Positions 8,398-34,290 of a stretch of 64,000 nt of DNA are shown here, in pieces. Within the stretch, counting starts at the first letter, position 1, and every line of letters begins with the position of its first letter. Source of the DNA: Bryobacterales bacterium (lineage in GTDB: Bacteria; Acidobacteriota; Terriglobia; Bryobacterales; Bryobacteraceae); assembly GCA_963719195.1 (NCBI GenBank), contig CAVRBB010000009.1, positions 406,280 to 470,279 on the forward strand, written 5' to 3'. The notes under the pieces were generated by a model, which ran no database searches, was not told the DNA's origin, and saw only the letters and a list, made by a program, of their open reading frames with translations. The position numbers and the translations under genes were made by a program.

Positions 8398-11539
<3,142 letters not shown>

Positions 11540-12018: not shown

Positions 12019-12570
12019 GTGATTGGGGCATTGCGGGTCGCCACAACGGGGCTGGTCCTCGTTGCGGGCGCGTCGTACCTGATGGTCGAAAACGTAACGC
12101 TGCGGTCCCGTGTGTCGGGGCTCGAAGCCCAACGCACCGATTCAGGAGCCCGGGCGGAGGCGCTCCGGCGTCAACTCGACGAGGAGCGAGGCCGCGATAT
12201 CCACCCGGTTCCGTCGTCCGCGCCGGTTGCGTCGCTGGTTCTCCTGCCGGGCCTCTCGCGTGCGGAAACGCGCCTGCAAGAACTCGAGCTGAATTCCTCG
12301 ATGCAGGTCGCCCGGATAGAAATCGAGGTCGAAGCCAGGGACGACTTTCCGCGATTCCGCGCCGAGCTTCGCAAGCGTACCGGTGAGGAGGTGTTGACCC
12401 GGAGCCAACTCCACAGGCGGGTCGAAGGCGGACGGTACGTCGTATCCTTTGATGTCCCCGCGGAAGCGCTTGCCGCCGGCACGTACGAACTGACGCTCAA
12501 GGGAGTCGCCAACGATCACACGGCGGAGGACGTCGGATATTACTACTTCGCGGTCGTGCGGAAAAGCTGA
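12019..12570 (+). CDS. Membrane-anchored hypothetical protein (183 aa)
   Basis: One N-terminal TM segment, a coiled-coil-like stretch and a beta-rich C-terminal domain. Family and start codon are uncertain. Confidence 0.5.
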   Translation: MIGALRVATTGLVLVAGASYLMVENVTLRSRVSGLEAQRTDSGARAEALRRQLDEERGRDIHPVPSSAPVASLVLLPGLSRAETRLQELELNSSMQVARIEIEVEARDDFPRFRAELRKRTGEEVLTRSQLHRRVEGGRYVVSFDVPAEALAAGTYELTLKGVANDHTAEDVGYYYFAVVRKS

Positions 12571-17608: not shown

Positions 17609-17851
17609 CGAAGCTCCCTTTGCGATCCGACCCAGTGCAGCCTTACGTTCCATATCATCGCTTCGTTTCTGATATGCAATCAGGTCCTTGTGGTAAATGC
17701 GCCGGTGGCTGCCGACATTGTGGTACGGCAGGACTCCGTTGTCCAGGAGCTTGATGAGATGAGGCCGGGAAATCCTGAGGAGGCCGGCAGCGCGCTGCGT
17801 CGTCAATGGCTGATTCTCGGGAATCCGGGCAATTGCTCTGCGCGACTCCAT
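17537..17851 (-). CDS. Excisionase-family helix-turn-helix DNA-binding protein; its 3' end is supplied by the inverted-repeat element
   Basis: LTTQRAAGLLRISRPHLIKLLDNGVLPYHNVGSHRRIYHKDLIAY matches the excisionase/MerR-type HTH. The last ~24 codons lie within the 17415-17608 element, starting in its right arm (17588-17608). Confidence 0.6.
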   Translation of the reverse strand: MESRRAIARIPENQPLTTQRAAGLLRISRPHLIKLLDNGVLPYHNVGSHRRIYHKDLIAYQKRSDDMERKAALGRIAKGASLVLLGHKYVLLKLGRFTPKGCQY

Positions 17852-17865
17852 GTTGCGCGCGCGAA

Positions 17866-17881
17866 CGGCATTGGGTGTGCT
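17866..17881 (+). promoter_or_regulatory. Candidate sigma-54 (-24/-12) promoter upstream of archease-rtcB
   Basis: cGGCATtgggtgTGCT has GG and GC at the consensus spacing of TGGCAC-N5-TTGCW. It is very close to the GTG start (17893), which weakens the call. Confidence 0.3.
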
Positions 17882-17892
17882 ATCTAGAGATT

Positions 17893-18303
17893 GTGTTCGA
17901 AATCCTGGAGCACGCCGCCGACGTGGGCTTCCGGGTTAAGGCTGGCAACCTGCGCGAGATATTCGAAAGCGCCGCCGAAGCGGTGGTCGCGCTCGCCATG
18001 GAGACGGAGAATATCGTTGAGCGCCAATCCTATCCGGTGGAGGCGGAGGGCGACTCCAACGAATCCTTGCTGGTGAACTGGCTGAGTGAGATCCTCTACT
18101 ACCTGGACGGCCGACAACTCGCGCTGCGGCGATTCAATGTCTCCCAGGTGGCTAAGGATCGAGTGCGCGGCGCGGCGCTCGGCGAGCCTCGAGACCCGCT
18201 CCGCCACCGGGCGCGACTCGTCGTCAAAGGCGTGACGTACCACCAGTTGAAAGTCGAGCGGACAGCCAACGGGTGGGTTTGCGAAGTTTTCGTGGACGTG
18301 TGA
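17893..18303 (+). CDS. Archease (RtcB activator)
   Basis: With a GTG start at 17893 the protein begins MFEILEHAADVGFRV..., the typical archease N-terminus. It ends ...GVTYHQLKVERTANGWVCEVFVDV. Confidence 0.85.
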   Translation: MFEILEHAADVGFRVKAGNLREIFESAAEAVVALAMETENIVERQSYPVEAEGDSNESLLVNWLSEILYYLDGRQLALRRFNVSQVAKDRVRGAALGEPRDPLRHRARLVVKGVTYHQLKVERTANGWVCEVFVDV

Positions 18304-18313
18304 GAGGCCGCAC

Positions 18314-19744
18314 ATGGAACTCGAAGCGATCGATCGATTCCGCTATCGCATTCGGCGCGACGCGGCGCTGGGCATGCGTACCGACGTGATCGTTTACGCC
18401 AGCGGCCAACTCCTGGAGCAGATTCGCAAGGACGCGTCTTTGGACCAGGCCGTACATGTGGCCATGCTGCCGGGCATCGTCGGGCCCAGCCTCGCGATGC
18501 CGGATATACACCAGGGTTATGGCTTTCCGATCGGCGGCGTCGCGGCCACGGATTGGCGCAGCGGAGTGGTTTCGCCCGGCGGCGTGGGCTTCGACATCAA
18601 CTGCGGCGTGCGGCTCATACGAACGTCCCTGAGCGAGGAGGAGGTGCGGCCCCGGCTGGCGCTCCTGCTGGACCAGGTCTTCCGCGACATTCCCTGCGGT
18701 ATGGGTGGCAAAGGCCCAATCCAACTCAAGCCGCGCGAACTGGACCAGGTGCTCGTTAAAGGGGCGCAATGGGTGGTGGAGCAGGGGTTCGGGCACGCAG
18801 CCGATATCGAATTCACGGAAGAACGCGGCGCGCTGGCCGAAGCCGATCTACGGCAGGTCTCCGAGCGCGCCAAAGAGCGCGGCAGCCGGCAACTGGGCAC
18901 CATCGGCAGCGGCAATCATTTTCTCGAAATCCAGCAGGTGGAGCAGATTCACGATGGGGAGGCGGCGCGCGCCATGGGTCTGGAACCCCGGCAAGTCGTC
19001 GTGCTCGTGCACTGCGGTTCCCGGGGCCTGGGTCACCAGGTCTGCACGGACTTCCTGGCGAAAATGGGGGCCGCCATGAAGAAGTACAACATCACGCTTC
19101 CGGACCGGCAACTGGCGTGCGTGCCAGTTTCGTCCGACGAAGGCCAGTCGTATTTGGCTGCGATGCGCGGCGCCGCCAATTTCGCCTGGGCCAACCGGCA
19201 AGCCATCCTGCATTTTCTGCGCGGAGCCATCCAGCGCATTTTCGGGTCGGGCACGAGAGTGGATGTAGTTTACGACGTTTGCCACAACATTGCGAAGCGC
19301 GAGCGGCATCACTGGAACGGCGAGAAGGTAGACGTGCTGGTGCATCGGAAGGGCGCCACTCGCGCGTTCGCGCCGGGTCGCCGGGAACTCCCCGACGCCT
19401 ATCGCCATATCGGCCAGCCGGTGCTCATTCCAGGCAGCATGGGGACGGCGTCCTGGGTGCTGGTGGGGGCGGAAGGCGCGATGCGTGAGACGTTCGGCAG
19501 CGTCTGCCACGGCGCCGGCCGGCGGATGAGCCGTACCGCCGCGAAGAAGGGGCGGAACGCGCGCGAGGTGCAGAAAAAGCTGGAAGAGCAAGGTATCCTG
19601 GTGCGCAGCGAGACGCGCGATGGCATTCTGGAGGAGGTACCGGAAGCCTACAAAGACGTCGATGCCGTTATTGACGTGGTACACAGCGCCGGTCTGGCGC
19701 GGAAAGTCGCCCGGCTGCGACCGCTTGCGGTGATTAAGGGGTAG
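18314..19744 (+). CDS. rtcB: RNA-splicing ligase RtcB
   Basis: PDIHQGYGFPIGGV, GSGNHFLEIQ, HCGSRGLGHQ, HRKGATRAF, PGSMGTASWVLVG and CHGAGRRMSR are all canonical RtcB motifs. Confidence 0.95.
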   Translation: MELEAIDRFRYRIRRDAALGMRTDVIVYASGQLLEQIRKDASLDQAVHVAMLPGIVGPSLAMPDIHQGYGFPIGGVAATDWRSGVVSPGGVGFDINCGVRLIRTSLSEEEVRPRLALLLDQVFRDIPCGMGGKGPIQLKPRELDQVLVKGAQWVVEQGFGHAADIEFTEERGALAEADLRQVSERAKERGSRQLGTIGSGNHFLEIQQVEQIHDGEAARAMGLEPRQVVVLVHCGSRGLGHQVCTDFLAKMGAAMKKYNITLPDRQLACVPVSSDEGQSYLAAMRGAANFAWANRQAILHFLRGAIQRIFGSGTRVDVVYDVCHNIAKRERHHWNGEKVDVLVHRKGATRAFAPGRRELPDAYRHIGQPVLIPGSMGTASWVLVGAEGAMRETFGSVCHGAGRRMSRTAAKKGRNAREVQKKLEEQGILVRSETRDGILEEVPEAYKDVDAVIDVVHSAGLARKVARLRPLAVIKG

Positions 19745-20297: not shown

Positions 20298-21200
20298 TCA
20301 CGCGGACTTTGCCAGAAACCGCCTCGGCTCCAGTTGCGTGATAGGTTGAAAGAAACCGCCTTCGAAGGCGTGCCAGCATCGGTCGAATACGCGACTGACG
20401 TATCGGGAAGCCCCTTCCAGAGGGCTGCAATTGACGATGCGCGTGGCGCCACCCTGGCGCAGACGGTGCAGGGCATCGGCGAACCGAACCGGACGAGCGA
20501 CGCTGCGAGCGATGTACTCGGTCAGGTTCATTTCGCTGTCGAGAAAGCCGTTGCTTACGGCAGAGTAGACGGGCACCTGAAGCGGTTGCGCCTTGAGTCC
20601 CTGGAGCTCGCGCGATAACGAACACGCGACCTCTTCCATGAGCGGCGGGCAATGAACCGGGTGCTTCGAAGAGAGCCGGGCCACGGAGATTCCGCGGGAG
20701 ACCGCAGCATTCAGCATTCTTTGCACGCTTCCGTGTCCGCCAGAAATCACCGTTTCGGTTGGCGAATTCTCGACGGCGATCGCGATATCGGAAGCTCCCA
20801 GGTCGGCGATCATGGCGCGGACGGTACGCGCCGGGGCCCTGACGGTCGCCATACAGCCGGCGCCGGGGGGCAGACTTCGCAATGCCCGTTCACGAGCAGC
20901 GACAATTTCGGCGCCTTCCTGGACGGTGAACGCACCACCGCAGACCAGAGCCGGAATTTCGCCAAAGCTCTGTCCAAGCAGCGCGCGAAACGGCCAACCG
21001 GCGCGGGTGACGCGCCGGAATGCCGCAACGGATGCGCTGTACACCAGCAGGGCCGTTTCTTCTTCCGCGCCCAATGCGAGCTGTCGACCGGTTCGGCCGA
21101 TTTCGTCCAAGACTTCGAGTAGCTCGGGAGGCGGTCCCAGTATTTCGGGCCGCAGCTTTCCTTGTCCCGAGAAGAGTATGACCAGGTCCGGTTTAGTCAT
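20298..21200 (-). CDS. Free-standing acyltransferase-fold protein (FabD/PfaB-like) with a variant GQSFG nucleophile elbow
   Basis: LFSGQGK (vs FPGQGSQ), GQSFGE (vs GHSLGE), ENSPTETVISGG, HPVHCPPLM (vs AFHSPLM). The start overlaps the preceding gene by 8 nt. Confidence 0.75.
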   Translation of the reverse strand: MTKPDLVILFSGQGKLRPEILGPPPELLEVLDEIGRTGRQLALGAEEETALLVYSASVAAFRRVTRAGWPFRALLGQSFGEIPALVCGGAFTVQEGAEIVAARERALRSLPPGAGCMATVRAPARTVRAMIADLGASDIAIAVENSPTETVISGGHGSVQRMLNAAVSRGISVARLSSKHPVHCPPLMEEVACSLSRELQGLKAQPLQVPVYSAVSNGFLDSEMNLTEYIARSVARPVRFADALHRLRQGGATRIVNCSPLEGASRYVSRVFDRCWHAFEGGFFQPITQLEPRRFLAKSA

Positions 21201-21633
21201 TGGTATTGCTCCTTGTTTCCAGGTTCGTTACAGGGCCACCTGGAGCTTTCTGCGGTCGCATCTTCAGCAAGTAGTAAGCGAATCCGCTCGCCAGCAGAAC
21301 ATGAATTACCGTATTGGGTGCAAAAGAACCAAGCGTTTTGTAGGTACCATTCGCGTACGCGAGCGGATCAATGGGCAGTATGCCCAGTTGGAGAATCAGG
21401 TTAGCGATCAGGATCGCGCGCAGCGTAGGCGAGTCTTCGTGATCCCTGACGAGGTAGGCCAATACGCCCGTCGCAATGAGCAGAATCCCGACCGTGCGGG
21501 CCATGACATTCGCTACGTCGCACGGCGCCGCCATTTTGACGCGTCCGATGAGCACGCCGGGCGCGCAGAACGCAAACAGTCCGACGGCCAGGGCGATAGC
21601 GGATGCGATCGTTAGAAATGTGCTTCGTTTCAT
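21193..21633 (-). CDS. Small integral membrane protein (about 4 TM, possibly DUF4345-like)
   Basis: 146 aa with four hydrophobic segments. Translationally coupled to the AT-like gene. Confidence 0.6.
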   Translation of the reverse strand: MKRSTFLTIASAIALAVGLFAFCAPGVLIGRVKMAAPCDVANVMARTVGILLIATGVLAYLVRDHEDSPTLRAILIANLILQLGILPIDPLAYANGTYKTLGSFAPNTVIHVLLASGFAYYLLKMRPQKAPGGPVTNLETRSNTND

Positions 21634-21758
21634 TTTGACTCCATGTTCGATTATAAAAATGCGCCTTAACCGGGCCCGTATGGCCGCGGCTCCGAAACGC
21701 TAGTGGTTACCGAGCCGCGACCGTACAGCGAGCGGTAGGGCGACACTCGCGACACACT

Positions 21759-23273
21759 CTACTGTCCGAGCGGCGCGCCGTACCAGGTGGTCGTAATCTT
21801 CGGCCAGTTGCGTACGCTGGCTTCGGACTCCGGCGGCAGTTGTATCTCTGCCATCTGCTGTGGTGTGAACGGCTGACTCTGCGTCTGGTGACACACCTGG
21901 CACACCGTAGTGTTCATGCCCCACTTGCGCCTCTTCATCAGATAATTCATCGGGTCGTCCGTGGGGTCGCCGTTCTGGTAGAGCGCGGTAATGGCATTCA
22001 GATTGGTCTCCCGGTGCTCGTATGCTGCCCGGCCGAGATCCCAATAACCAAAGGTAACGGCCTCGTCCGGCCGAGTCCGCAGCGCCAGCAGTTGCGCCGC
22101 CGCATCGGGCTGCCCGGCCTTCAACAGAAAGTCGGCAAATCCCAAAACGTAGGAAAGGAAGTTATAGGGGAACCTCGGGTAATCCGAGCACGTGCGGACG
22201 CCCGATTCCTGGCAGTGCACGATCCCATCCTGAAAGGCTGCCAAGCCCTCCATGAAATTCTGGGGTTCCTCGAAGAACGGCAAGCCGAGGGTGAAGGCGT
22301 GGAACGCGCGGTGTACCAGGCGCCACTCTCTGTGCTCGTTGTCAATCAATGCGACCGCCGGCTGATCACCATGCAATTTAGCCAGCCATCTTCTCTGAAG
22401 CAGCGAAAACCCACCGAGAATGGTAGCCATGCGGAACCGTGTATTGTGTGCCGGGTCCTTATCCCAGGCGGTCTCCAGTTCCTGAGCCAATTTCATCGTG
22501 TGAATGGAGAAGTAACTCCCCACGGCGAAGTTGTAGAGCACCGTCGGGTCGTCGTAGTCGGCCTCGCTGCCGACCCACAGGTTGAGCGCAGTATTGGCAA
22601 ACGCGGTATACACGTTGTTCGGGTCCCTCACGAACTCTTCGAGCAGTTGGTCCCCCGCGGCGTAGCGGTTCTCTTCCTTGAAATGAAAAGTCTCCCGGAA
22701 GAAGAGGTGCGCGCTGCGGTCTTCATCGAGGGTGATCGTGCCGGGCTTTTCGAATACGGCGTCCAAATCCCGCTGATTTTTCGCGATGTACTCGTCGATC
22801 CACGGCTCATTGGCGCCCAGGGCCTTGGCCCGTTGCAGGAAGTACTGGGAGATGATCCGATGGCGCAGGGCGCGGCCTTCTTTCCCGGCCTGCTGCTCGT
22901 TCGCGGCCGCCGCGACCAGGTGATGAATGGCCAGCAACCTGGCTAGGTGCACGTCGCCGGGCTTGTTCAAATAGGCTTTCAGCAGCGCCTTTTCGAGCCT
23001 GCCGATATTCGGCTGCGTCGCATGCGGCAGCAGGGTCTCGTAGGCGGAAAGCGGGTTCGCCGGCGGCGCCGCTGGGGGGGCGGTGCGGTGTTCTGCCGGG
23101 GATCGTCCCCGGAGCCCGGGATGCGACTGCAGGATGGTCATGATTTCGCCCAGCGCTTCCGGTCCCGGTTTGGCGCCAGGCGTGCGGCCCGCATCCGCTG
23201 CGACGGAACCGTTGTAAGTAGCGCTGGCGAGCAACAAAAGTGAAATCGTCGGTATTCTCATACTGTTCCTCAT
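21759..23273 (-). CDS. Secreted all-helical hypothetical protein with a single C-terminal CxxCH motif
   Basis: Signal peptide MRNSMRIPTISLLLLASA. CQVCH is encoded at 21888-21902. No family recognised. Confidence 0.65.
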   Translation of the reverse strand: MRNSMRIPTISLLLLASATYNGSVAADAGRTPGAKPGPEALGEIMTILQSHPGLRGRSPAEHRTAPPAAPPANPLSAYETLLPHATQPNIGRLEKALLKAYLNKPGDVHLARLLAIHHLVAAAANEQQAGKEGRALRHRIISQYFLQRAKALGANEPWIDEYIAKNQRDLDAVFEKPGTITLDEDRSAHLFFRETFHFKEENRYAAGDQLLEEFVRDPNNVYTAFANTALNLWVGSEADYDDPTVLYNFAVGSYFSIHTMKLAQELETAWDKDPAHNTRFRMATILGGFSLLQRRWLAKLHGDQPAVALIDNEHREWRLVHRAFHAFTLGLPFFEEPQNFMEGLAAFQDGIVHCQESGVRTCSDYPRFPYNFLSYVLGFADFLLKAGQPDAAAQLLALRTRPDEAVTFGYWDLGRAAYEHRETNLNAITALYQNGDPTDDPMNYLMKRRKWGMNTTVCQVCHQTQSQPFTPQQMAEIQLPPESEASVRNWPKITTTWYGAPLGQ

Positions 23274-23346
23274 TCGGAAGTGAATTGTTGATAGCTTTCA
23301 GCGCGGCGGCGTTCCGAACGGCCGCCGCATGCCCAGAGCTTCGTTG

Positions 23347-26300
23347 TCAGGCGCCGAGCCGCGTCTCTGCCGCGAAGATCGGCCGGATTCGCTGCCGTCC
23401 GTTCGCTCCACAAGCGTCGATCAGTGCGGATCGATAGACCTCGGGTACGTCGGCCGGTTCGGCGCTGGTCCCGCGAGCGCACCAGATCGCGTCATGATCT
23501 CCGTACGCGAGCTTGATGCGTTGGCCGTTGCCGGCGAGCTTATAGAAATCGAAGTGCAACTGCGTTCCCTTGCGGTACAGCGCCTTCAACGAGATCACCA
23601 CCTCGATGGCATCGAATGGCATCGCTTCCCGAAGGTGCCGGATTTCGCTTCGCACGCAGCGGAACTCACCGATCATCCCTCCGGCGGTGAACAGGTCCGG
23701 GGCGATGTCATGGTAGTAGCGGTCGATGACCCGGTTCATCCAGTGGTAGTAATTCGAGTAGTAAATGTTCCCCACCAGATTGGACTCGGCGGAAGTCGTG
23801 TGGAATGTTTGAGCCGCCAACTCCGGCTGGAGTTTAGGACCTTCGGGCGAACGGTAGAGGCATTCACCGAGTCCGCCCTCGATAGCGCGCCGCTGCGCGT
23901 CCTGTATTGCGAGTCGCGAGGGTTGATCGATGGCGCCGGCGCCCTGCTGTTGCGCTGGCAGATTCGCCTCGATGAACCGTTGCATGTAGTCCGGGAACGG
24001 CTGCACCTCCACCACGCCGTGACCCTTGATCTCCACCCAGGTGGTCGCCATGTTGCTGGATGCAATCCGTTCTTCCGATCCGTCCGGACGGATCTTGAAC
24101 CAGTCAAAATGCATATCCACCGAGGAGTTGAATTTGCCGTAGGTCTTGCTGATGTGGATGCGGCCTTCGATCAGATCCATGGCGCCGGCGTCGCCTGCGA
24201 CGTAAATGTCGGAGTGGTTGGTCACCATTCCCCAGCGGCCGGTGGCGAAATCCTCCACCATCCGGCCCGCCACATCGACCGTACCGAGTTCCCTCACCTT
24301 GCCCATCCAGTCGGCGAAAACCGGGAAGTTCAAGGTGTGCCGCAACGTAGTCGTGTCTTTGAACGTTGCCCGAAAGCGGAAACCCAGGGCAGGCTGGCCC
24401 GAAGGGCCTTGCCTGAGATAGGCGCCTCCCTCGTTGCGGGCGAGGACGGCGACTTGCTCCAAGGCGGGTTGGACGGTCATGGCCACCATCTTCTTCGGCG
24501 GCCGGGTCAGCGCCACAGGGAAGGTCAACACGTTCACGCTGCGGCCCTCGGCCTCTGCCGAGAAGAGCACACCGCCCTGCTCCCTTCGCAATAGCTGGAT
24601 GTTCGCGCCAGCGGTCCCGAAGGCCTTGACGGCGGTTTCCATCGCGCACCAGATGCGAGTGCCGGCGTCATTCAAGGCGTCACCGCCAGCCATCAACGCT
24701 TGGAGCAGGGCCTGCCGGTTGTTCCCGAGCAGGTCCAGCCATTCCTGTTCCGAACGGGGGCTGACCGGTTCGATATCGCAGCCTTGTGCCTCGCGGCCAG
24801 CCACGCAAAGACAGTGTCTCCGGTCGTGTGAAAGCGAAACACTCACTTGGTCATCCAGACCTCGGACAACCGGCTTGCCGTTCTCAGCCCATTGGATCTC
24901 CACACCACTCAGGTCACTTCGACGTTCTGTGGGCAACACCTTGGAAACGGCGTCCAGAAACAGCGGGCACTCCACCAACCGCCTCCGGCTTCGATCCAGC
25001 TTTGAGAGTTCTGCATCAAAGACGAGCCGGTACGCCGGTGCGCTGACCTTCAGCTTGTCAACAACTTCCTTCAGCGCTTTCGCGAACAGCGCGGCGTCGC
25101 GCTCGCCGGGATGGATGAAAACCTCCGGATCCGGCGCGCTCTCGTGGCGATCCATTTCCTTCAGCCGGTAACCTTCCAGCCGCTCGATGGGGCGCCCATC
25201 CGCAGTGACGGCGGTGACATTGCAGACCGGTCCCGTGCGCGACGTGATCTGGTTCCGGGCGAGGCCGGCTCCCGAATAATCGAGCGAATAGAGATACAGC
25301 GCGTCGATGCGCACCGGAAGCGACACGATCTTGATGGAGAGCTGCGGGCTTTGCAGCAGCACGTCGCGGAACGACGGGTCGCCCAACATCAGCGCCGCCG
25401 GGTGCTGCGGCGCGAAGTAGCCCGGCTCGGAACGACGCTCGATTTCGATGAGCGATCCCTGGGCGTCCATCGCCCAGACTTTCTGCATGCGCTGGAACAG
25501 CGGGCCTTGGAACAGCGAGCCGCCGTACAACTCGGTCTTGGGATCGATATCGATGGGTGCCGCGGGTCGTGCCCAATCCCGAGAGTCAACCTGATAGTGC
25601 TGCGGTTCGATCACGAACGTCGCCGCGAAATGGTCACGCTTGAATGCGGACTGCTCGGTGCTGATGCCGACGCGAACGGAAACCGGATCGGATGGACTTC
25701 CGCGCTGGATCACCTCCGCCTTCATCTGGATCAGCGCGCCGGAGTCGCTCGCGACCACAATCGGCCGCTCGAGCTTGATATCCACCACTTTGAGCGACTC
25801 GAATTTGGAAACGCCCAGCACCTTGGCCACGCACTGCGCCATCGCCTCCAGACCGAAGACGGTGGGGAAGAGATAGACACCGCGATAATAGTGGTGGCGC
25901 AGGTAAAGATCGTCGTCGAGCTTCAGCCGCACGCGGTTGACCAGCTCGACGCCCGGTTCGAAGCGCTGAATGTCCTGAATGAACCGTCCGGCCGGGGAGG
26001 CGGTCAAGGGCAGGTTGCGCCAGGTATCCAGGCCGCCCAACCGGCCCGCGATCACCACCTGGTTCGCCGGGCTCTGCTTCCGCACCGCATCCAGGAAGTG
26101 CGCAATGCCGTCCGCCGGCGGAATGGCGGAAATCCCCATCTTGGCGAGGTGCTGCACGCTGCCCAGGCGAGCGCCCATGCCCACCTCGCTCCAAACGCTG
26201 TAGGCGAGCGCCACGGTTTGCGTCGCCCGGTGAGCGGCCCGAAACCTTGCGAGCGAGAGATTCAATGCTTCGTTCGAGAACGCGTACCAGGAGTTTCCGG

Positions 26301-26895
26301 GCATGCCGGTGACGCCGATGATCGAAGATAGGGCCGCGATCAGCTTTGGCGGCCGCGCCTCCAGCGCCCGGCATAGGTTCAAAAAGCCCTGCACCTTGGG
26401 GGAGACTTCCGTGAGCGCCTGTTCTTCTGTAACCTGTTCCACTCGCCGCGGTTTGTTTACACCCGCGCCGTGAATCAGCCCGGTGATCGGGCCGAACTCG
26501 CGTTCGACCTCTTCCACCACGCGATTCACTTCGGCTGGATCGACGATGTTGCATTGATGGTAGCGGGCAACCAGTCCGGCCCCGGCGTAGCGGGACAGCA
26601 CGCGGCCGATCTCCGTAGACTGCCGGTCGATGGCATCGTTGTATGGCGAGGTCCCCACCAGCACCATCCGGGCGCCGCTCGCCGTGGCGAAGGAGAAAGC
26701 GCATTCGGCGGTGATACCCTTGGCGCCGCCAGTAACGACCACCACGTCTTCCCGGCTCCATTCGACCGGCCGCGGTGACAGAAGTTGCGGCTCGATGACA
26801 CGCGGCTCCAAGAGATACCGTTGGCCGCCGGCAGCATAGTGACTCAGTACGTATCGCTCGGACCCGATTTGTTCCGCTACGATGCGGCCGGCCAT
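23347..26895 (-). CDS. PKS subunit or continuation: KR - DH - 4'-phosphopantetheinyl transferase - two hot-dog (thioesterase-type) domains
   Basis: KR approx 26011-26895 (VVVVTGGAKGI, SWYAFSNEA). DH approx 25141-25998 (HYYRGVYLFP = HxxxGxxxxP, DVLLQS). PPTase approx 24586-25128 (SVSLSHD...QGCDIE...WCAMETAVKAFG). Hot-dog 1 approx 23971-24393; hot-dog 2 approx 23461-23823 (NLVGNIYYSNYYHWM). Confidence 0.85.
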   Translation of the reverse strand: MAGRIVAEQIGSERYVLSHYAAGGQRYLLEPRVIEPQLLSPRPVEWSREDVVVVTGGAKGITAECAFSFATASGARMVLVGTSPYNDAIDRQSTEIGRVLSRYAGAGLVARYHQCNIVDPAEVNRVVEEVEREFGPITGLIHGAGVNKPRRVEQVTEEQALTEVSPKVQGFLNLCRALEARPPKLIAALSSIIGVTGMPGNSWYAFSNEALNLSLARFRAAHRATQTVALAYSVWSEVGMGARLGSVQHLAKMGISAIPPADGIAHFLDAVRKQSPANQVVIAGRLGGLDTWRNLPLTASPAGRFIQDIQRFEPGVELVNRVRLKLDDDLYLRHHYYRGVYLFPTVFGLEAMAQCVAKVLGVSKFESLKVVDIKLERPIVVASDSGALIQMKAEVIQRGSPSDPVSVRVGISTEQSAFKRDHFAATFVIEPQHYQVDSRDWARPAAPIDIDPKTELYGGSLFQGPLFQRMQKVWAMDAQGSLIEIERRSEPGYFAPQHPAALMLGDPSFRDVLLQSPQLSIKIVSLPVRIDALYLYSLDYSGAGLARNQITSRTGPVCNVTAVTADGRPIERLEGYRLKEMDRHESAPDPEVFIHPGERDAALFAKALKEVVDKLKVSAPAYRLVFDAELSKLDRSRRRLVECPLFLDAVSKVLPTERRSDLSGVEIQWAENGKPVVRGLDDQVSVSLSHDRRHCLCVAGREAQGCDIEPVSPRSEQEWLDLLGNNRQALLQALMAGGDALNDAGTRIWCAMETAVKAFGTAGANIQLLRREQGGVLFSAEAEGRSVNVLTFPVALTRPPKKMVAMTVQPALEQVAVLARNEGGAYLRQGPSGQPALGFRFRATFKDTTTLRHTLNFPVFADWMGKVRELGTVDVAGRMVEDFATGRWGMVTNHSDIYVAGDAGAMDLIEGRIHISKTYGKFNSSVDMHFDWFKIRPDGSEERIASSNMATTWVEIKGHGVVEVQPFPDYMQRFIEANLPAQQQGAGAIDQPSRLAIQDAQRRAIEGGLGECLYRSPEGPKLQPELAAQTFHTTSAESNLVGNIYYSNYYHWMNRVIDRYYHDIAPDLFTAGGMIGEFRCVRSEIRHLREAMPFDAIEVVISLKALYRKGTQLHFDFYKLAGNGQRIKLAYGDHDAIWCARGTSAEPADVPEVYRSALIDACGANGRQRIRPIFAAETRLGA

Positions 26896-26905
26896 GAATC
26901 CGCTG

Positions 26906-29900
26906 TCATGGGACCGGATGGAAATCCACTGCCCTCACCTTCAAGTGCGGCCTCTCCAGGTGAATGCTGGCGGCGAAGGAAGATGCACAGGCGGTCTCGA
27001 AAGTACCTTCCGCGAGTTCGAGGCCCTGGCTCAATCCCGCGAACTGCACGTAGGTGAGGCTCCGGCAGTTGGCCTGCTTTGCCGATACTACGGCAGCGGC
27101 GCGAAGGCGCTGGATGGCACGGCTAAGCTGAAGGTCGACGGAAGACGCCTGCGGCAGAAGGACGATGAAGTGCTGAATGTCCGTTCGCATTTCGCATGCG
27201 AGTTGGGCTGGGCCGGCGGTGAAGACAGTTGCGCCGAGTGCGGCCAGCTTCTGGCTGAGAGTGGCGGCCAGTTCCTCCTCACCCTCCTCATGCTGAACGG
27301 CGACCACGCTGCCGGTGAAGTCAGCCGCAGCCTGGCGTGCTCGGTCGAGGTCCGAGGGCACCAGCCGCATCTCGAAACTTCTCACCCAATCGCCGCTGGT
27401 TTCCGTGACTGCGGGCGGCGGCGGTGCCGCGGCGCTCACCGGTTGCGGCGGGCCAGCCAGCCCGCTGAGCTTTCCGGCGATTTCACCCAGCGTGGCCCCG
27501 GCCAGTTCGGCGGCGTCGAGTTGCCCGGCCACACCGAGCTGCGCACAAGCGTCCGCGATCAGCGATCCGGCTTTGATCGAGTCGAGATTCAGGTCGTCCA
27601 GCAGCCGGAGACTCAGATCGATCTGGTCGGCAGGGAACCCGGTGGCTTTCGCTGCCAGCGTAACGATGAGCTGGCTCGCGTCAGTTTTGGTGGCGGTCGC
27701 AGCCGGAGCAGCGGTCACCGGGGGTTGCGGCCGCTGAATCATCGGCAGCAAGTCCCCCAGGGTGGCCGCGGCGAATTCGGCCGGGTCGAGTTGGTCCTGT
27801 AGGTTGAATTTCCGTGCGATCTGGCCGATCAGCTCTCCGGCTTTGATGGAGTCCAGGTTCAGATCGTCCACGAGGTTCAGCGACATGGATATCGTCGCGG
27901 GATCGAAACCGGTAAACGCGGCGACGATCGATTGGATCTCGCGCTCGACATCCACCGTGGGGTTCACGGGGTGCATCACGCTGGGCGCCGCCGCCGCGGC
28001 CTCGCGAATCACGACCACCGGCTTCTCCTTCTTCACGCCGTTTCCGTTGGCCGGTATCAACGCCCGGGGCGGTGCAGTACCCACATCCGCACGGATGACA
28101 TCGCTGATGAACCTTCCCCGGCGCGACAGGTAGTCCTTCAGGTCGACGCCGTCTACATTCAGTCCCAGGTGTTCCGTGTCCGCAAGCAGGGCCGTCGGCA
28201 CCGCCGCTGCACGCTCGAACGGCCGTTCGCAGGGGTTCACGATGAACGCCAGGTCTTTCGCGGGAACGAAGGGCCGGATCAACCGGTTCGCATACAACTC
28301 ATCCCATCGGACCGGCTTGCCGTACGCATGCGCCAGAGCCACCAGCCAGTTGAGGTCGTGGAAAGACTCGGCCTGCCGTTCGACGGGGTAGGCGCCGAAT
28401 GTGCCGTTCTCGGGGAATTTCGCGATCAGCCCGGACAACACGTTCCCGGGGCCGACTTCCAACGCCACGTCGCAGGCCGCCCGGAAGTTCCGGACAGCAC
28501 TCACGAAATCGACAGGGCGGAGAATCTGGGACGCAAAATGTTCATGCAGGTCGCTGTCTTTCGAGACCGGACGTCCGTCGCAGGAGGAAATCAATTCCCG
28601 GTTCCGATTTTGCGGCGTGCGGGGTATTGGCGCCTGCCGGCGGATGCGCTCGGCCGCGCCGGCGACCAATGGAGAGTGAAACGCATTACTCACCGAGAGC
28701 CGGTGGGTGGTGATGCCCTGGGCGACGGCAAGTTCGTTCAGCGCTTCGATGGCGGGAATTTCGCCCGACACGACCGTCTGAGACGGACTATTGATGTTGG
28801 CCACCACCAGTGCTCCGCGATCGATTACATTGGCAATCAGTTGCTCGGCCTTGCTCTTGTCGCACACCAGGCTGAGCATCGTGCCCACCGGATCGACACC
28901 GTTGCCGGCCATCAACTGCCCGCGCACCGTGGCCAACTGAATCAGCGCTTTCTCGTCGAATGCGCCGGACGCGTAGAACGCCGTTAACTCGCCGAGGCTG
29001 TGGCCCATCACCACGTCGGCCGAGAAGCCCAAGCGCTGCAGATAGGTCAGCCACAACAGCGATGTGAGAACGATCGCCGGCTGCGACAACTGCGTCTGCT
29101 CCAGCCGCGTCCGCAGCGGCTGGATCTCTTCTTTGCTGATATGGCGATCGAGATCCGGGTAGATCGACGCGGAAAGATTCTCCGTTCCGAGCTCCGCGGC
29201 CCACCGGTCGGCGTCGGCAACCATCGTGCGGGCCCATTCGAACCGCTCGACCAGGCCGCGCGCCATATTGAGCCGCTGCGATCCCTGGCCCGGGAAGAGA
29301 TAACCAAGCGAGCATTTGCGGACGCCGTTGGAGACCACGATCAGGTTTTCCGCATCAACCACAGCGTCACCCTGCCGGGGCGGGTTCGCGATGCGATCGA
29401 GCAGTACGGCGAGCTTCCGTGTCAGCTCTGCCGGGTTTGCTGCGACTACGGACGCTTTGACCGGCAGTCCCGGAATTACACGGGCATTCAAAGAAGCGGC
29501 GAGGTCCGCCATTTCTGCCAGACTCGCGCCGGCGGCGTCCTCCTGCGCGCTCAGCACGACTTCCTTCAATTGCGGGAAATCGCTCGCGGCGAAGCAATAC
29601 ACCTCGCTCTCCTGCCGCGAGACCATGGCCGCACGCTCGTCGATTTCGGGCTTGAGATCCGGTACCGGCTCCGCGCCCGACTTCAATGTCACGTGCAGGT
29701 TGATGCCGCCGAAACCCATGGCCGATACTCCGGCCCGCAGCTCCTTCTGGCGCGGGTGGATCTCGCCCCGCACGGCGGGATACAGGCACGTCGATTCGCC
29801 GGAGAAAACATCATGCGGCATTTCGCAGCCCGCGGTGGGCGGTGTGACCCGCTGGTTGACCGCCATCACGGCCTTAATGAACGCACCGATGCCGGCAGCG

Positions 29901-31099
29901 GCCTTGGTGTGCCCCACGATCGATTTGAAAGAGGTGACGCCGCAGCGCCGCCGGCCGACGTTTCCGCCCTGTCGCAGAGCCTTGGTAATGCCCAACAGTT
30001 CGGTCTTATCGCCCACGGTCGTGCCCGTCCCGTGTCCTTCGATGAAATCGATATCGCCGGTGTCGATCCCGGCGAGTTGGTATGCCCGGCTCAAGGCCAT
30101 GCTCTGGCCGTTCACGCTGGGAGCGGTGATCCCGCCTTTTCCGTCGGAAGACATTCCCCACCCATCCAGCACGGCGTAGATCTTGTCGCCGTCGCGGAGC
30201 GCATCGGCCAGGCGCTTCATGCCGACGAACCCGCAGCCTTCGCCCGGGATAAAGCCGTTGCCGCGCTTGTCGTATACCGACATCTCATTCGGTGTTAGAG
30301 CGCCGACCTTGGCAAATCCGACCAGCTCGAATGGATCCAGACTGATGTCCACGCCGCCGGCGATCGCAAAATCCGCCGCGCCGCTCGCGAGGCTGCTGGC
30401 GGCGGAGTAGACGGCGATCAGCGAAGACGAGCAGGCTCCATCGACCGTGTATCCGCCGCCGTTGAGATTCAGATAATTGCAGATGCGGCCCGCGATGGTG
30501 TTCGCCAGGCCGCCGGCGAGCGTGTCTTCGTTGATCGGCGCGAACACGGACTTGAAGCTGTGTTCCATGCTTTCGGACAAGGCGCGGACCGCTTCGGCCG
30601 GCATGCCCAGATCGGAGGCGGCGGCGCGCAGGATCTTGTGGACGAAAGGCCAACGCAGCCGGAGCGTGTTGGATCGCGTGACCTCGCCCGTCAGCGTATT
30701 GCCGACCACGACCTGCGTGGTTTCCCGCGGAAGATCGCCCGGCTGGTACCCGGCGTCCTCGAGCATTTGAAGCGCGACATCCAGAGATAGCCAATGCACG
30801 ATGTCGGTCGATTCGTAGGTGGTTTTCGGAATGCGCTTCCGGGCCCAATTGAACTCGTAGCCGTCGATCACCGCCGCTCGCTGGCCGTACGTTTTGTCCG
30901 GTACGGTCTTGTCGGCATGGTGGTATTCCGCAAGCGGCAGGCGGACGTCCGGCATTCGCCGGAACTGGCGCCGGCGCGCGAGGATGTTCTCCCATAACTC
31001 CTTCGGGGTTCTTGCGCCGGGATACCAGCAACCGATCCCGATAATGGCTATCTCGTTTCGCTTGGCGTCGTTGGGGAATCGCGCGTTTGTCATTTTCAT
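26906..31099 (-). CDS. Enediyne-PKSE-like iterative type I polyketide synthase: KS - AT - ACP - ACP - N-terminal KR subdomain
   Basis: KS approx 29672-31060: ELWENILARRRQFRRMP, VVGNTLTGE, NEDTLAGGLANTIAGRICNY, TVDGACSSS (Cys codon 30431-30433), EGHGTGT, GHTKAAAG. AT approx 28412-29308 (GQGSQ, GHSLGE, AFHSPL). ACPs approx 27737-27955 and 27458-27679 (both DDLNLDSIKAG). Start taken at the ATG at 31099 (MKMTN); the ORF is open to 31261. Confidence 0.9.
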   Translation of the reverse strand: MKMTNARFPNDAKRNEIAIIGIGCWYPGARTPKELWENILARRRQFRRMPDVRLPLAEYHHADKTVPDKTYGQRAAVIDGYEFNWARKRIPKTTYESTDIVHWLSLDVALQMLEDAGYQPGDLPRETTQVVVGNTLTGEVTRSNTLRLRWPFVHKILRAAASDLGMPAEAVRALSESMEHSFKSVFAPINEDTLAGGLANTIAGRICNYLNLNGGGYTVDGACSSSLIAVYSAASSLASGAADFAIAGGVDISLDPFELVGFAKVGALTPNEMSVYDKRGNGFIPGEGCGFVGMKRLADALRDGDKIYAVLDGWGMSSDGKGGITAPSVNGQSMALSRAYQLAGIDTGDIDFIEGHGTGTTVGDKTELLGITKALRQGGNVGRRRCGVTSFKSIVGHTKAAAGIGAFIKAVMAVNQRVTPPTAGCEMPHDVFSGESTCLYPAVRGEIHPRQKELRAGVSAMGFGGINLHVTLKSGAEPVPDLKPEIDERAAMVSRQESEVYCFAASDFPQLKEVVLSAQEDAAGASLAEMADLAASLNARVIPGLPVKASVVAANPAELTRKLAVLLDRIANPPRQGDAVVDAENLIVVSNGVRKCSLGYLFPGQGSQRLNMARGLVERFEWARTMVADADRWAAELGTENLSASIYPDLDRHISKEEIQPLRTRLEQTQLSQPAIVLTSLLWLTYLQRLGFSADVVMGHSLGELTAFYASGAFDEKALIQLATVRGQLMAGNGVDPVGTMLSLVCDKSKAEQLIANVIDRGALVVANINSPSQTVVSGEIPAIEALNELAVAQGITTHRLSVSNAFHSPLVAGAAERIRRQAPIPRTPQNRNRELISSCDGRPVSKDSDLHEHFASQILRPVDFVSAVRNFRAACDVALEVGPGNVLSGLIAKFPENGTFGAYPVERQAESFHDLNWLVALAHAYGKPVRWDELYANRLIRPFVPAKDLAFIVNPCERPFERAAAVPTALLADTEHLGLNVDGVDLKDYLSRRGRFISDVIRADVGTAPPRALIPANGNGVKKEKPVVVIREAAAAAPSVMHPVNPTVDVEREIQSIVAAFTGFDPATISMSLNLVDDLNLDSIKAGELIGQIARKFNLQDQLDPAEFAAATLGDLLPMIQRPQPPVTAAPAATATKTDASQLIVTLAAKATGFPADQIDLSLRLLDDLNLDSIKAGSLIADACAQLGVAGQLDAAELAGATLGEIAGKLSGLAGPPQPVSAAAPPPPAVTETSGDWVRSFEMRLVPSDLDRARQAAADFTGSVVAVQHEEGEEELAATLSQKLAALGATVFTAGPAQLACEMRTDIQHFIVLLPQASSVDLQLSRAIQRLRAAAVVSAKQANCRSLTYVQFAGLSQGLELAEGTFETACASSFAASIHLERPHLKVRAVDFHPVP

Positions 31100-31590
31100 G
31101 CCCTGGTGTTCAGCAGATTGCAGAAGATTTCGAGAGACCGGTAGCGTGAGCAGCCCGATAACGATGCATCCGGGGCCGCTCAACATCCGGCGTGGCGGCC
31201 CTTCGGTGGCAAAAGGCCGCCGAATAGGGTGCAGCGGTCGTTTTCCGAGTCGACGATACACAGATATCCAACAGAATCGGCACTTGCGAATCTCCTTCGT
31301 GCAGCGGGAATTTCGAGCTGAGAGCTGGCTGATGCAACGATGACAACAGGGACCGTCGCAGCAGAAGCAGCGCGGACGTGCCTGCTCCGTTCAACAGTTC
31401 CGGATTGCCGTGGCGTACCCAGGACCAGGCAATGGAATCAACGTGCGCCAATTGTTTTTCAGCGCAGTCCGCACCTGTATAGTGCGTGCATCGGCAGGAC
31501 CGTTACAGGGATGCGCCGAGTGTGGGCCGCCGGACTAGTACTGGTTTTGGTTCGGTCCTTGATCGTGATCGGTAGTTTTTCCCGCACGGC

Positions 31591-31925: not shown

Positions 31926-32124
31926 CGTTGGAGGAACCCGCCTGTCGCAATACAGCCAGATCGAACAGGCCCCAGGCGAGCAGGCATCGCCGCGGACGAT
32001 TTCCACCGTTCGCGTCAGTGCTTTGTGGCGGGCCGTCAGTTTCAGCGGCGCTCATCAATGTCCACACTCTCCGTCTCCCTCGGTCCGAACCTGCGCGTTG
32101 TTATACTATTCTCGAAATCCCTTC

Positions 32125-32211
32125 GCGGTCGTGGCGAAATTGGCAGACGCGCCAGACTTAGGATCTGGTCCACGAGAGTGGGTGGAGGTTCAAGTCCTCT
32201 CGGCCGCACCA
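32125..32211 (+). tRNA. tRNA-Leu (anticodon UAG), type II with a long variable arm and encoded CCA
   Basis: Folded by hand. Acceptor GCGGTCG/CGGCCGC. Anticodon stem CCAGA/TCTGG with loop CTTAGGA. Variable arm CCAC/GTGG. T-loop TTCAAGT. Discriminator A plus CCA. Confidence 0.9.
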
Positions 32212-32248
32212 GTTTAGAATCCATCACTTACAGCGACACGCGGCTTAT

Positions 32249-33439
32249 TCACTGAATGGCTTCAGGGGCCTTAGGTGTGCCTGTAGTGTGCCGCTCGTCC
32301 GCCGTGTCGGTTTTTGGGGTGTCCGGTGCGCCTTTGTGTGCCAGGTACTCGCCCAGGCGCCGCGCCGCGTCCTTCAGGTCCGATTCTGAAACGATGTTGT
32401 AGCGATCGAATACCGCCCTCGTCTTGTGGCCTGAGATCATCATCGCAACCCGCTCCGGGACGCCGGCCCGAATCAGATTCCGCACCCCGGTCCTGCGGAG
32501 GTCGTGAAAGAGCTTCGCCGGCTGTCCGTCCGCATCCACCAGTTTCGCCGCCTTACACGCCTTGGCCCACATTCCCTCAAAACGCTGGATCGGCTTACCA
32601 GCCCGTGAAAAGACCCAGGGACTTTCGGGAAAGTAGCGGTCGCGGGTTTCCCTCTGGATTTTGAGCACCTCGTACAGGTCCGACGCCAGCGGAATCGTCC
32701 GCCCTTCGTCGTTCTTGGTTTCGCCCGGCTCCAGCCGGACTACACGCTCCACCAGATCCACCTGTGGCCACTGAAGCGCCAGAATCTCACCCTTGCGGCA
32801 TCCGGTGTAATAGGCGAAGGTGACAACCGGCCGGATCTCTTCCGGCAGCTCGCGCCGCACGGCCAGAAACGCCTCATGCTCGAAAAATCCCTTGCGGACG
32901 TTGTTTTCGGCCAGCATGGGGAAGAACGGTACCGCACCCACCTTTGGCGGTGTGGCCTTCTTGCCGAGGTTGAAGGCACGCCGTAACAGCGCCAGTTCGC
33001 GGTTGATTGTGGCATTGGCTGCGGGCCCGTATTCGCGATGGTACTCCCCTTTTTCGCCGAATGTCCGGATGTGCGGTTGCTGTCGGCCGGCGATGTACTT
33101 CCGGATTTGATCCGTTCCGATCCTCGAGGCCTTCATGCTGCCGAAGTACGGCCGAAGGTGCACGCGCACGACGTCATCTACCCAGGACCAACTCTTGTCG
33201 TTGATCTTGTAGTCTGCGAGCAGGTCGTCCAGCAGAGCTCCCATCAAGGTGTGGCTCGCGCCGGCGTACGTCCCGAGGTCTTGTTCGCGCAGCTTGCCGT
33301 TGAGGTACGTCTGCGCATCTTTTTTCGTGCCGTGGACGATGTGCCCGTCATACTTGCGCTTGCCGGTCTGTGGCTCGCGTCCCACGTACATGCCCACCAG
33401 CCAAACGCGCTCGGCACGCCGAATGATTTGTCCAGCCAT
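32249..33439 (-). CDS. Tyrosine-type site-specific integrase
   Basis: C-terminal catalytic region HDLRRTGVRNLIRAGV...GHKTRAVFDRYN. It lies 38 nt from the 3' end of tRNA-Leu. Start taken at MAGQIIRR. Confidence 0.9.
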   Translation of the reverse strand: MAGQIIRRAERVWLVGMYVGREPQTGKRKYDGHIVHGTKKDAQTYLNGKLREQDLGTYAGASHTLMGALLDDLLADYKINDKSWSWVDDVVRVHLRPYFGSMKASRIGTDQIRKYIAGRQQPHIRTFGEKGEYHREYGPAANATINRELALLRRAFNLGKKATPPKVGAVPFFPMLAENNVRKGFFEHEAFLAVRRELPEEIRPVVTFAYYTGCRKGEILALQWPQVDLVERVVRLEPGETKNDEGRTIPLASDLYEVLKIQRETRDRYFPESPWVFSRAGKPIQRFEGMWAKACKAAKLVDADGQPAKLFHDLRRTGVRNLIRAGVPERVAMMISGHKTRAVFDRYNIVSESDLKDAARRLGEYLAHKGAPDTPKTDTADERHTTGTPKAPEAIQ

Positions 33440-33440
33440 A

Positions 33441-34290
33441 TTAATTCTCCTCTCGCTCGGCACGCACGGCCGAGAGACTCAAGTGCCGCAGTCCCTTGAT
33501 CTCAGGTGTGTCGGTCACATAGGGCCATCCGGCCAGCGCACGCGCCGCATGATACCGCCAGCGCGCGGGCGCGATTCCGCCCCATTGGTGGAGGTGGTAC
33601 AGCAAGTGCCCCGGATGCGGCGCCACGGTGAAATCGTAATCCGGCGCGACGCGGAAACGCTCCGCCTCTGCTAGCGGGAAGCGGACGAGCATTTCCCGTT
33701 GGCTTACAAAGCACTCAATCATCCGCGACTTGCGCTCACGTTCCTCTTGGCTGGGCGCAATGGGTATGCCTTCATCGCCAGCGAAGCACCCCGTTTCGAA
33801 CGCACCGCCCGGCCCCGCATGGTAGCCCGTGAACTCAAGGACTAATGGCCGCTCTGGAACCAACCGACATGCCGCGGCCACTGCGAACGCGCAGGTATCG
33901 TGATCGGAGTTGCCGCCCTCGTAGGCGTGCGTAAGAACCGTCCGCGGCCGCAGTTCGCGAATGACTTCGGCAACGCGCCGCGTTACTTCCGAACATGCAC
34001 AACGCGGTTTCTTCGTCCGGCAAATCGAGGCACCGCAAGCGCTCTTCTCCGATGCCCGCCAGGCGCATCGCATTCAGAAGCTCTTGCCGGCGGGCCAGGG
34101 CATACTCTTCGCGGGAGTCAAAGCCCATGTGCCGTACGTGGGGCGGATTCCGCGGTGCGCCATCGGTGAGGTGAACAATCACCGCATCCAAGCGCGGCAA
34201 GATGCCGCTGGCGCCGATAGTCTCATCGTCCGGGTGTGCAGCCACAATGAGCACAGGCCCCGCGGCCAGGGCCTCTTCAATGCTACTCAC
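33441..34290 (-). pseudogene. PIG-L/LmbE-family deacetylase, split by a frame change near 33990-34015
   Basis: The N-part holds VLIVAAHPDDETIGASG (frame of ORF 33835-34380). The C-part holds RPRTVLTHAYEGGNSDHD (ORF 33441-34073). The GTG start overlaps the stop of the upstream glycosyltransferase. Confidence 0.7.

Follow-up and report, generated by a model that had tools for sequence, protein, structure and literature searches.

The 64,000-nucleotide (nt) stretch of Bryobacterales DNA analyzed here (contig CAVRBB010000009.1, positions 406,280 to 470,279; hereafter the window) contains, on its minus strand, a four-gene operon around one self-contained iterative type I polyketide synthase (PKS) of the enediyne PKS (PKSE) superfamily. 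The synthase includes its own phosphopantetheinyl transferase (PPTase) and thioesterase (TE) domains and is accompanied by genes for an exported CxxCH protein (G3), a small membrane protein (G4) and a free-standing acyltransferase (AT; G5). Judged from its homologs, the system probably produces a pentadecaheptaene-like polyene that would be handled in the cell envelope, and the split seen in the synthase gene is most likely an assembly indel. A preliminary description of the locus had read it as a PKSE-type iterative PKS without the enediyne cassette. That reading was right: the synthase is collinear with SgcE, and a search of the window for E3, E4 and E5 was negative.

Organization of the operon and of the PKS

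Five minus-strand open reading frames (ORFs) in the same direction occupy positions 20298-31261 (26906-31261, 23347-26895, 21759-23273, 21193-21633, and 20298-21200). The first two are 10 nt apart, followed by gaps of 73 nt to the 504-amino acid (aa) gene (G3) and 125 nt to the 146-aa gene (G4), and the start of the last gene, encoding the 300-aa AT (G5), overlaps the G4 stop by 8 nt. Third-position GC content (GC3) of the five ORFs was 0.68-0.78, as high as in the real genes of the window. The locus had been described as an operon of five genes; the tight, co-directional arrangement stands, and the number is reduced to four, the first two ORFs being one PKS gene. The first ORF as listed extends to a GTG at 31261, while alignment with the ortholog begins at 31090, and the true start is probably the ATG at 31099 (MKMTNARF...).

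Searches with Pfam and NCBIfam models gave the domain order ketosynthase (KS)-AT-acyl carrier protein (ACP)-ACP-ketoreductase (KR)-dehydratase (DH)-PPTase-hotdog-hotdog, with a weak 4HBT_2 match, and detected no enoylreductase (ER) or other zinc-dehydrogenase domain in the PKS ORFs. The KS-AT-ACP-KR-DH-PPTase order and the lack of an ER, both proposed in the preliminary description, are thereby borne out by the domain scans (the order also by motifs and by collinearity with SgcE), as are the two fused hot-dogs and the tandem ACPs that extend this order. The catalytic motifs were intact in the 5' half (DGACSSS, EGHGTGT, GHTKAAAG, FPGQGSQ, GHSLGE, NAFHS, and two copies of LDDLNLDSIKAG) and in the 3' half (TGGAKGIT, YAFSN, HYYRGVYLFP, GCDIE, and WCAMETAVK). 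The ACP region contains a 45-nt direct repeat (27556-27600 and 27826-27870), the copies of which are 87% identical and 270 nt apart. Positions of the domains are listed in Table 1.

Similarity to SgcE and to enediyne thioesterases

SgcE and its neighbors were taken as reference from the C-1027 plasmid SGLP1 of Streptomyces globisporus, found by tblastn of the KS against plasmids (locus L007). Over 96% of the domain, the KSs of the window and of SgcE were 54.2% identical. By BLASTP, residues 15-1148 of the PKS, repaired as described below, aligned with SgcE residues 2-1041 (38.8% identity) and residues 1119-2169 with SgcE 920-1888 (29.5% identity); the two segments overlap because the window PKS has an extra ACP where SgcE has one. 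Both hot-dogs were matched by SgcE10 (residues 2244-2346, E 0.003; residues 2438-2559, E 4e-13). Hot-dog 2 also matched the solved structures of CalE7 (1.5e-11), SgcE10 (5.6e-11) and DynE7 (6e-10), otherwise only two related thioesterases, and it has the signature ESNLVGNIYYSNY..W..R in common with these three enzymes. The PKSE likeness claimed from the sequence was thus upheld from end to end. Two components of the cassette are present: component E as KS-AT-ACP-KR-DH-PPTase in one protein once a single frameshift is repaired, and component E10 as a domain fused to the PKS, not as a separate gene. The KS of DynE8 was considered as a direct structural test and set aside, as only the DynE8 AT domain has been solved, which scores no better than FabD.

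The window enzyme has in common with SgcE and SgcE10 (equivalent to CalE8/CalE7 and DynE8/DynE7) the arrangement of KS-AT-ACP-KR-DH-PPTase in one polypeptide without an ER, the N-terminal signature of the hot-dog TE, and the expected conjugated polyene with TE release. It differs in that the TE is fused and doubled, two ACPs replace one, and E3 (DUF1702), E4 (UnbV/CRTAC1) and E5 (UnbU) are missing. Its KS groups in a sister clade, its host belongs to the Acidobacteriota, and its partners are G3, G4, and the extra AT.

A frameshift in the PKS gene

The orthologous PKS in a Bryobacterales metagenome-assembled genome (MAG; L001/L002/L009) is encoded by one uninterrupted ORF of 2615 aa, and the same three genes come after it. 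In a tblastn search with this ortholog, residues 6-1409 aligned in frame -1 to position 26915 and residues 1410-2615 in frame -2 from 26913. At the break, the ortholog reads DFHP-SQDDKF-VAGRIV, and the window reads DFHP followed by VP and a stop, with SHDSGF-MAGRIV in the other frame; the local alignment of DFHPSQDDKFVAGR with DFHP/SHDSGFMAGR requires one extra base. The two halves are equally conserved relative to the ortholog (72.8% and 73.7%), and GC3 is 0.77-0.78 in both. At the sequence level, then, a +1-nt frameshift near 26914 divides a single PKS gene into the two large ORFs, and the repaired product has about 2583 aa.

The split is most likely an assembly indel because the ortholog is a single ORF, the halves are equally conserved, at least two other genes in the window are split and sister contigs are rich in frameshifts. 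A real split that leaves a working enzyme is possible: an ATG lies 10 nt past the stop, which would still allow the synthesis of two subunits, and relatives are naturally split at other places, for example Gloeothece into 1022 and 1673 aa. A dead gene is the least likely of the three options. We consider it improbable that the operon as a whole is a decaying, non-functional relic in which the frameshift is real and inactivating. The lesion near 26914, the adjoining tRNA-Leu and integrase, a DDE transposase (DDE_5/DDE_Tnp_1; 13496-14977, minus strand), the other split genes and the lack of synteny between the operon and its closest relative (the Bryobacterales MAG locus) would all suit such a relic. 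Against it, the lesion is the only one in 7.7 kb, every catalytic motif is intact, conservation and GC3 do not differ between the halves, a two-subunit product could still be made and would have natural counterparts in relatives such as Gloeothece, and frameshifts are numerous in other contigs of this kind of assembly.

Two further ideas about the site were discarded. A programmed frameshift at 26914 was rejected: the site has neither a slippery sequence nor the stop context for it, and the ortholog is in frame. A CCGGWC motif thought to be common to three frameshift sites was dropped when the shift in the PIG-L gene was found to lie off the motif. The other split genes of the window include that for an outer-membrane beta-barrel protein, where ORF 8190-10805 spans profile positions 1-587 and ORF 10010-11539 spans positions 582-834. 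The PIG-L gene is followed by part of a glycosyltransferase gene and, as far as 35790, by a number of short ORFs that overlap one another. Long ENA contigs of the contig_N type (L016, L024, and L022) also contained many fragmented genes, which indicates a high indel rate; in L024, the ribonucleotide reductase is spread over five ORFs and the PKS over four or more. An indel rate of this kind touches any ORF-level reading of such contigs.

Phylogeny of the KS and orphan relatives

A neighbor-joining tree of the KS (458 columns) was built with SgcE, 30 database matches, the gathered loci and a fully reducing PKS as outgroup. One clade contained SgcE and sequences from Microbispora, Ktedonobacter, Bacteroidota and some Acidobacteriota, which were 52-56% identical to the window KS. 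The window KS fell outside this clade, in a sister clade with sequences from cyanobacteria, Desulfobacterota, Omnitrophota, and Gemmatimonadota that were 59-89% identical to it. The outgroup KS was 30% identical. The preliminary description had proposed a phylogeny as a check of its PKSE assignment; the KS does belong to the PKSE superfamily, and in this tree, of provisional topology, its place is beside, not inside, the clade of the characterized PKSE SgcE. In the sampled loci of the window's clade, the hot-dogs were fused to the PKS wherever the gene was complete. In the one SgcE-clade locus sampled from outside Streptomyces (L022), the PKS was preceded by DUF1702, FG-GAP and RnfD-like genes, and the 4HBT gene stood alone.

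The window's clade corresponds to KS lineages labeled 'PksE-like' or 'enediyne' that have been known outside Actinobacteria as orphans since 2008 (PMC2442094; PMC4247773; PMC10308959), and the general class of cassette-less, PKSE-like enzymes with a fused TE is for that reason not new. We found no assigned product for non-actinobacterial PKSE-like clusters in the literature. The cyanobacterial orphans, from Microcystis PCC 7806 (PMC2442094) and from a plasmid of Gloeothece PCC 7822 (L008; KS 62% identical to that of the window), belong to the same clade. They have in common with the window a fused C-terminal PPTase and double hot-dog, the absence of E3/E4/E5, and the lack of a known product. 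The cyanobacterial loci contain three tryptophan-halogenase-like genes and no G3, whereas the window has G3, G4 and the AT and no halogenase; the Minicystis locus (L003) has both G3 and a halogenase.

Tryptophan-halogenase-like flavin enzymes were encoded near PKSs of the clade in L008 (22740-28415, three genes), L003 (11-1906) and L016 (17645-18772), and three such genes were also reported in the Microcystis PksE-like cluster (PMC2442094). Their presence suggests halogenated polyenes in the halogenase-bearing lineages. Some PKSs of the clade have regulatory domains fused to them: one PKSE-like synthase (P0129) has an N-terminal PilZ domain, another (P0127) has a similar N-terminal extension, and the PKS at L025 11734-16098 has GAF domains between AT and KR.

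NCBIfam has no PKSE-specific model, and the top match of the window PKS was TIGR02813 (PfaA), at 472.7 bits vs. a cut-off of 1010.1. This match, the tandem ACPs typical of Pfa synthases and the position of enediyne KSs next to polyunsaturated fatty acid (PUFA) KSs in published trees (PMC4247773) could point to a PUFA-type or 'secondary lipid' synthase (PfaA- or HglE-like) that makes a membrane fatty acid or glycolipid chain. The window PKS does share the iterative KS-AT-ACPn-KR arrangement with PfaA. However, its score is less than half of the cut-off, it lacks an ER, a KS-chain length factor and a FabA-type DH, and no PfaB, PfaC or PfaD partner was detected in the operon flanks. Its collinearity with SgcE is full, including the integrated PPTase, and its TE is of the enediyne type, which makes a PUFA-type synthase very unlikely.

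The enediyne cassette

The enediyne cassette is defined by the co-located genes E10/E/E5/E4/E3 (PMC4480864; PMC9992847). When SgcE2, SgcE3, SgcE4 and SgcE5 were searched with phmmer against all six-frame ORFs of the 64-kb window, no match was obtained at E<=1; the same search with SgcE and SgcE10 did recover the window PKS. Models for DUF1702 (E3) or UnbV-type proteins had no match in 44 G3 homologs. The similarities of G3 to SgcE4 (E 1.7) and of G4 to SgcE5 (E 0.97) by BLASTP were at noise level, so the comparison of the 504-aa and 146-aa proteins with the SgcE3/E4/E5 families, suggested in the preliminary description, gave no homolog of these in the window. The flanks of the operon encode archease and RtcB, a DAO oxidoreductase, the DDE transposase, tRNA-Leu, the integrase, and GatB. 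The claim that the cassette was missing consequently holds for E3, E4 and E5 over the full 64 kb and fails for the thioesterase E10, which is present in fused form. Genes of the E3/E4/E5 kind were likewise absent from the sampled loci of the window's clade (L008, L015, L016, L023, L024, L025, and all the G3-linked loci).

It is scarcely plausible that the operon is part of an ordinary enediyne cluster with E3/E4/E5 elsewhere in the genome and an enediyne as end product. The PKS and TE are clear homologs of SgcE and SgcE10, relatives are labeled 'enediyne polyketide synthase' by JGI, and the search covered the 64 kb of the window, on a contig at least 500 kb long. Yet the cassette is co-located by definition (PMC4480864), it adjoins the PKS both in the SgcE locus (L007) and in the non-Streptomyces L022, and it was found in none of about 12 sampled loci of the window's clade.

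G3 and its linkage to iterative PKSs

G3 has a hydrophobic N-terminal signal peptide (MRIPTISLLLLASA) and a CQVCH motif near its C terminus, in keeping with the secreted CxxCH protein noticed in the preliminary description. A Sec signal peptide together with CxxCH is the sequence pattern of c-type cytochromes, and G3 probably carries a c-type heme. Seventy-five homologs were found, all hypothetical and all from MAGs or metagenomes; among 185,579 species genomes, just six had a match to G3. When 1.84 billion representatives were searched with a profile, 38 clusters were obtained at E<1e-30, together with remote, exported relatives (about 290 aa) that have a PRWPHN-like motif and a terminal CxxCH. 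In 44 aligned G3 sequences, C458, C461 and H462 were invariant down to 39% identity, as were Y101, Y144, R148, E184, W233, E237, D242, R281, D311, E313, H314, W317, D381, R421, and W451. No Pfam or NCBIfam model matched G3, and Pfam scans of the 44 members and of 10 remote relatives yielded nothing beyond TPR noise below the threshold. The AlphaFold model was confident and all-alpha (predicted local distance difference test 90.6, predicted template modeling score 0.89), and no fold in the PDB matched it (best E 0.36, TM-score 0.16-0.26, generic TPR/14-3-3 helices). The closest relative, at 79% identity, is in the Bryobacterales MAG.

G3 directly adjoined an iterative type I PKS in all 12 informative loci; two others (L014 and L019) were left out of the count because the contigs were too short to tell. 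Seven of the 12 had a PKSE-like synthase with fused TE (the window, L001, L003, L004, L005, L010, and L017) and five had a KS-AT-DH-ER-KR-ACP-C synthase (L006, L011, L012, L013, and L021). Gene order and orientation vary among the loci, which come from Acidobacteriota, Myxococcota, Beta- and Gammaproteobacteria and Verrucomicrobia. In the tree, the PKSE-like KSs linked to G3 group in a single subclade (70-89% identity) with members from Acidobacteriota, Myxococcota and both Beta- and Gammaproteobacteria, a distribution indicative of horizontal spread. G3 lacks a functional annotation and is exported while the PKS is cytoplasmic, but that it is an unrelated periplasmic protein, beside the PKS by chance, is hardly credible given 12 of 12 loci in five phyla or classes, varied order and orientation, two PKS types, and a single subclade of linked KSs.

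The second partner of G3 is a synthase of 2600-2700 aa with the order KS-AT-DH-ER-KR-ACP-Condensation (L012 1045-10728; L013 1530-11344; L021, L011, and L006), found in Saccharophagus, Verrucomicrobia, Polyangiaceae, and soil metagenome contigs. These loci variously include genes for an MFS exporter and SnoaL/DUF4440 proteins, and L013 has a stand-alone PPTase gene. In L012, L013 and L021 (Verrucomicrobia and Gammaproteobacteria) G3 directly adjoins the synthase as it does in the window, whereas the synthase itself is of an unrelated type: its KS is 30% identical to that of the window, it is fully reducing, and it offloads its product by a condensation domain. A 506-aa unannotated ORF after the L025 PKS was considered as a G3 homolog and rejected, as it encodes the end of that PKS, with the PPTase and the two hot-dogs.

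Three aspects are new: a defined subclade of PKSE-TE fusions locked to an unannotated, exported CxxCH protein, the absence of any solved structural relative of this protein, and its occurrence with a second, unrelated PKS type.

Proposed mechanism and product

Every tested PKSE/TE pair, cognate or mixed, gave 1,3,5,7,9,11,13-pentadecaheptaene as a discrete product (PMC9992847). By homology, we infer the following steps for the window enzyme. The built-in PPTase would prime both ACPs and the AT would load malonyl units; KS, KR and DH would then act in every round, so that a fully conjugated polyene, as expected of a PKS without an ER, would grow on the ACP. The fused hot-dog thioesterase of the SgcE10/CalE7 type would release the chain as a C15 heptaene hydrocarbon or a close relative. 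Because E3, E4 and E5 are absent, the polyene would not be turned into an enediyne and would be the end product or be modified in another way. The hydrophobic product would leave the cytoplasm, and G3 may bind, oxidize or otherwise process it in the cell envelope; this role is predicated on the export of G3, its strictly conserved heme motif and a set of invariant residues (Asp, Glu, His, Arg, and Trp) clustered as in peroxidases. G4 may help in some lineages, and G5 would be a lineage-specific extra. Genes for outer-membrane channels of the FadL/TodX type (Toluene_X) were seen just upstream of two other cassette-less PKSs (L023 5006-5929 and L024 8505-9818); they hint at export or uptake of a hydrophobic product, which fits an exported product.

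Several observations weigh against this scheme. The KS tree was computed without bootstrap and without PfaA and HglE references; its topology is provisional, though the identity bands are clear. Since the KS clade differs from that of the characterized PKSEs, chain length and release chemistry may differ too. The similarity of hot-dog 1 to SgcE10 is weak, and the window residue aligned to position 37 of CalE7, which we take to be a catalytic Arg, is Ile. Every known carrier of G3 is an uncultured MAG or a metagenome contig. Because G3 is found with a fully reducing PKS as well, it cannot have a polyene-specific role, which would instead concern long hydrophobic chains in general, and its CxxCH could bind a metal or form a disulfide in place of heme. 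Finally, the frameshift in the PKS gene could be real.

Enediynes are among the most cytotoxic natural products and include antitumor antibiotics. To our knowledge, PKSE enzymes are known only as the first step to enediynes, and the five cassette genes are treated as their hallmark. The locus is a compact and apparently complete alternative, in which PKS and TE are fused, the ring-forming genes are gone, and an exported protein with a heme motif is found instead. If its product were made, it would show what many non-actinobacterial 'enediyne-like' KS sequences in metagenomes encode and would assign a function, for the first time, to a protein family found with iterative PKSs of two unrelated kinds. 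At about 11 kb, the self-priming operon is fit for heterologous expression after repair of the frameshift. A bolder proposal, which we hold only tentatively and consider doubtful, is that G3 represents a new class of exported heme enzyme that processes iterative-PKS chains in the periplasm, and that PKSE-TE and G3 together provide a non-enediyne fate for the heptaene, yielding a new family of metabolites derived from polyenes, either secreted or associated with the envelope, in soil Acidobacteriota, Myxococcota, and Proteobacteria. Overall, the locus is a good, testable lead, not a first-order surprise.

G4, G5, and the genomic setting

G4 had no significant Pfam match. Its homologs occurred beside a PKS or G3 only in L001, L004, and L017, which with the window makes four of the seven PKSE-type loci. 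In G5, alignment with solved ATs showed GQSFGE in place of GHSxGE (the Ser is kept, and Gln stands where the preceding His would be) and PVHC instead of AFHS; its only ortholog is in the Bryobacterales MAG (L001/L009, 52% identity), so that an AT is present in two of the seven PKSE-type loci, both acidobacterial. The preliminary description had reported a protein with four transmembrane (TM) helices and a variant AT. Both are present, and neither is a conserved part of the system. Its statement that the combination matched no characterized pathway also agrees with our results, as the accessory genes matched none that we found.

Table 1. Positions of the PKS domains, the other operon genes and further features of the window.
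Feature	Position	Strand	Evidence or remark
PKS 5' part (KS-AT-ACP-ACP and start of KR region)	26906..31099	-	Pfam KS 69-479, AT 654-938, two PP-binding
Two tandem ACPs	~27749-27940 and ~27479-27670 (span 27479..27940)	-	two PP-binding stretches, each with LDDLNLDSIKAG
Frameshift site	26906..26916	-	extra base in ...CAT CCG G TCC CAT GAC...; TGA 26906-26908, next ATG 26895
PKS 3' part	23347..26913	-	Pfam KR, PS-DH, PKS_DH_N, ACPS, 4HBT_2
KR	~26188-26742	-	Pfam KR
DH	~25138-25944	-	Pfam PS-DH/PKS_DH_N
PPTase	~24346-24798	-	weak ACPS match
Hot-dog 1	~24061-24369	-	weak SgcE10 similarity
Hot-dog 2	~23422-23787	-	matches CalE7, SgcE10, DynE7; signature ESNLVGNIYYSNY..W..R
G3, 504-aa exported all-alpha protein	21759..23273	-	C-terminal CxxCH at nt 21888-21902
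G4, 146-aa small membrane protein, 3-4 TM helices	21193..21633	-	hydropathy 3-33, 40-62, 70-92
G5, 300-aa free-standing AT	20298..21200	-	Pfam Acyl_transf_1 2.9e-17
Outer-membrane beta-barrel gene (PF25183), split	8190-11539	+	frameshift near 10740-10790
tRNA-Leu (+), then 38 nt on a 404-aa tyrosine integrase (-)	32125-33463	+, -	
PIG-L deacetylase gene, split in two frames	33441-34380	-	profile positions 1-82 and 87-129

The operon showed no GC anomaly. The window's GatB had 80-82% identity with the GatB proteins of MAGs assigned to Bryobacteraceae, Sulfopaludibacter, and Solibacter, which marks the host as an acidobacterium of the Bryobacteraceae type. The tRNA and integrase neighbors of the preliminary description were confirmed; the 'gene remnants' were so only in part, the PIG-L gene being one gene split by a frameshift. 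Up to 36.5 kb, no att-like repeat of the tRNA-Leu 3' end was detected. The 5' end of tRNA-Leu is covered by a direct repeat of 19 nt (17/19; 12546-12564 and 32121-32139), the copies of which are 19.6 kb apart and flank the region with the transposase, RtcB and the PKS. Thirteen short repeats of this kind were seen, and chance probably accounts for this one. A genomic island bounded by tRNA-Leu was unsupported, as this sole tRNA repeat is at chance level and the integrase lies on the far side from the PKS; any integrated element would sit to the right of tRNA-Leu, away from the operon. On the other side, an archease-RtcB RNA ligase pair (17806-19744, plus strand) converges on the operon end, and the DDE transposase lies about 5 kb beyond it.

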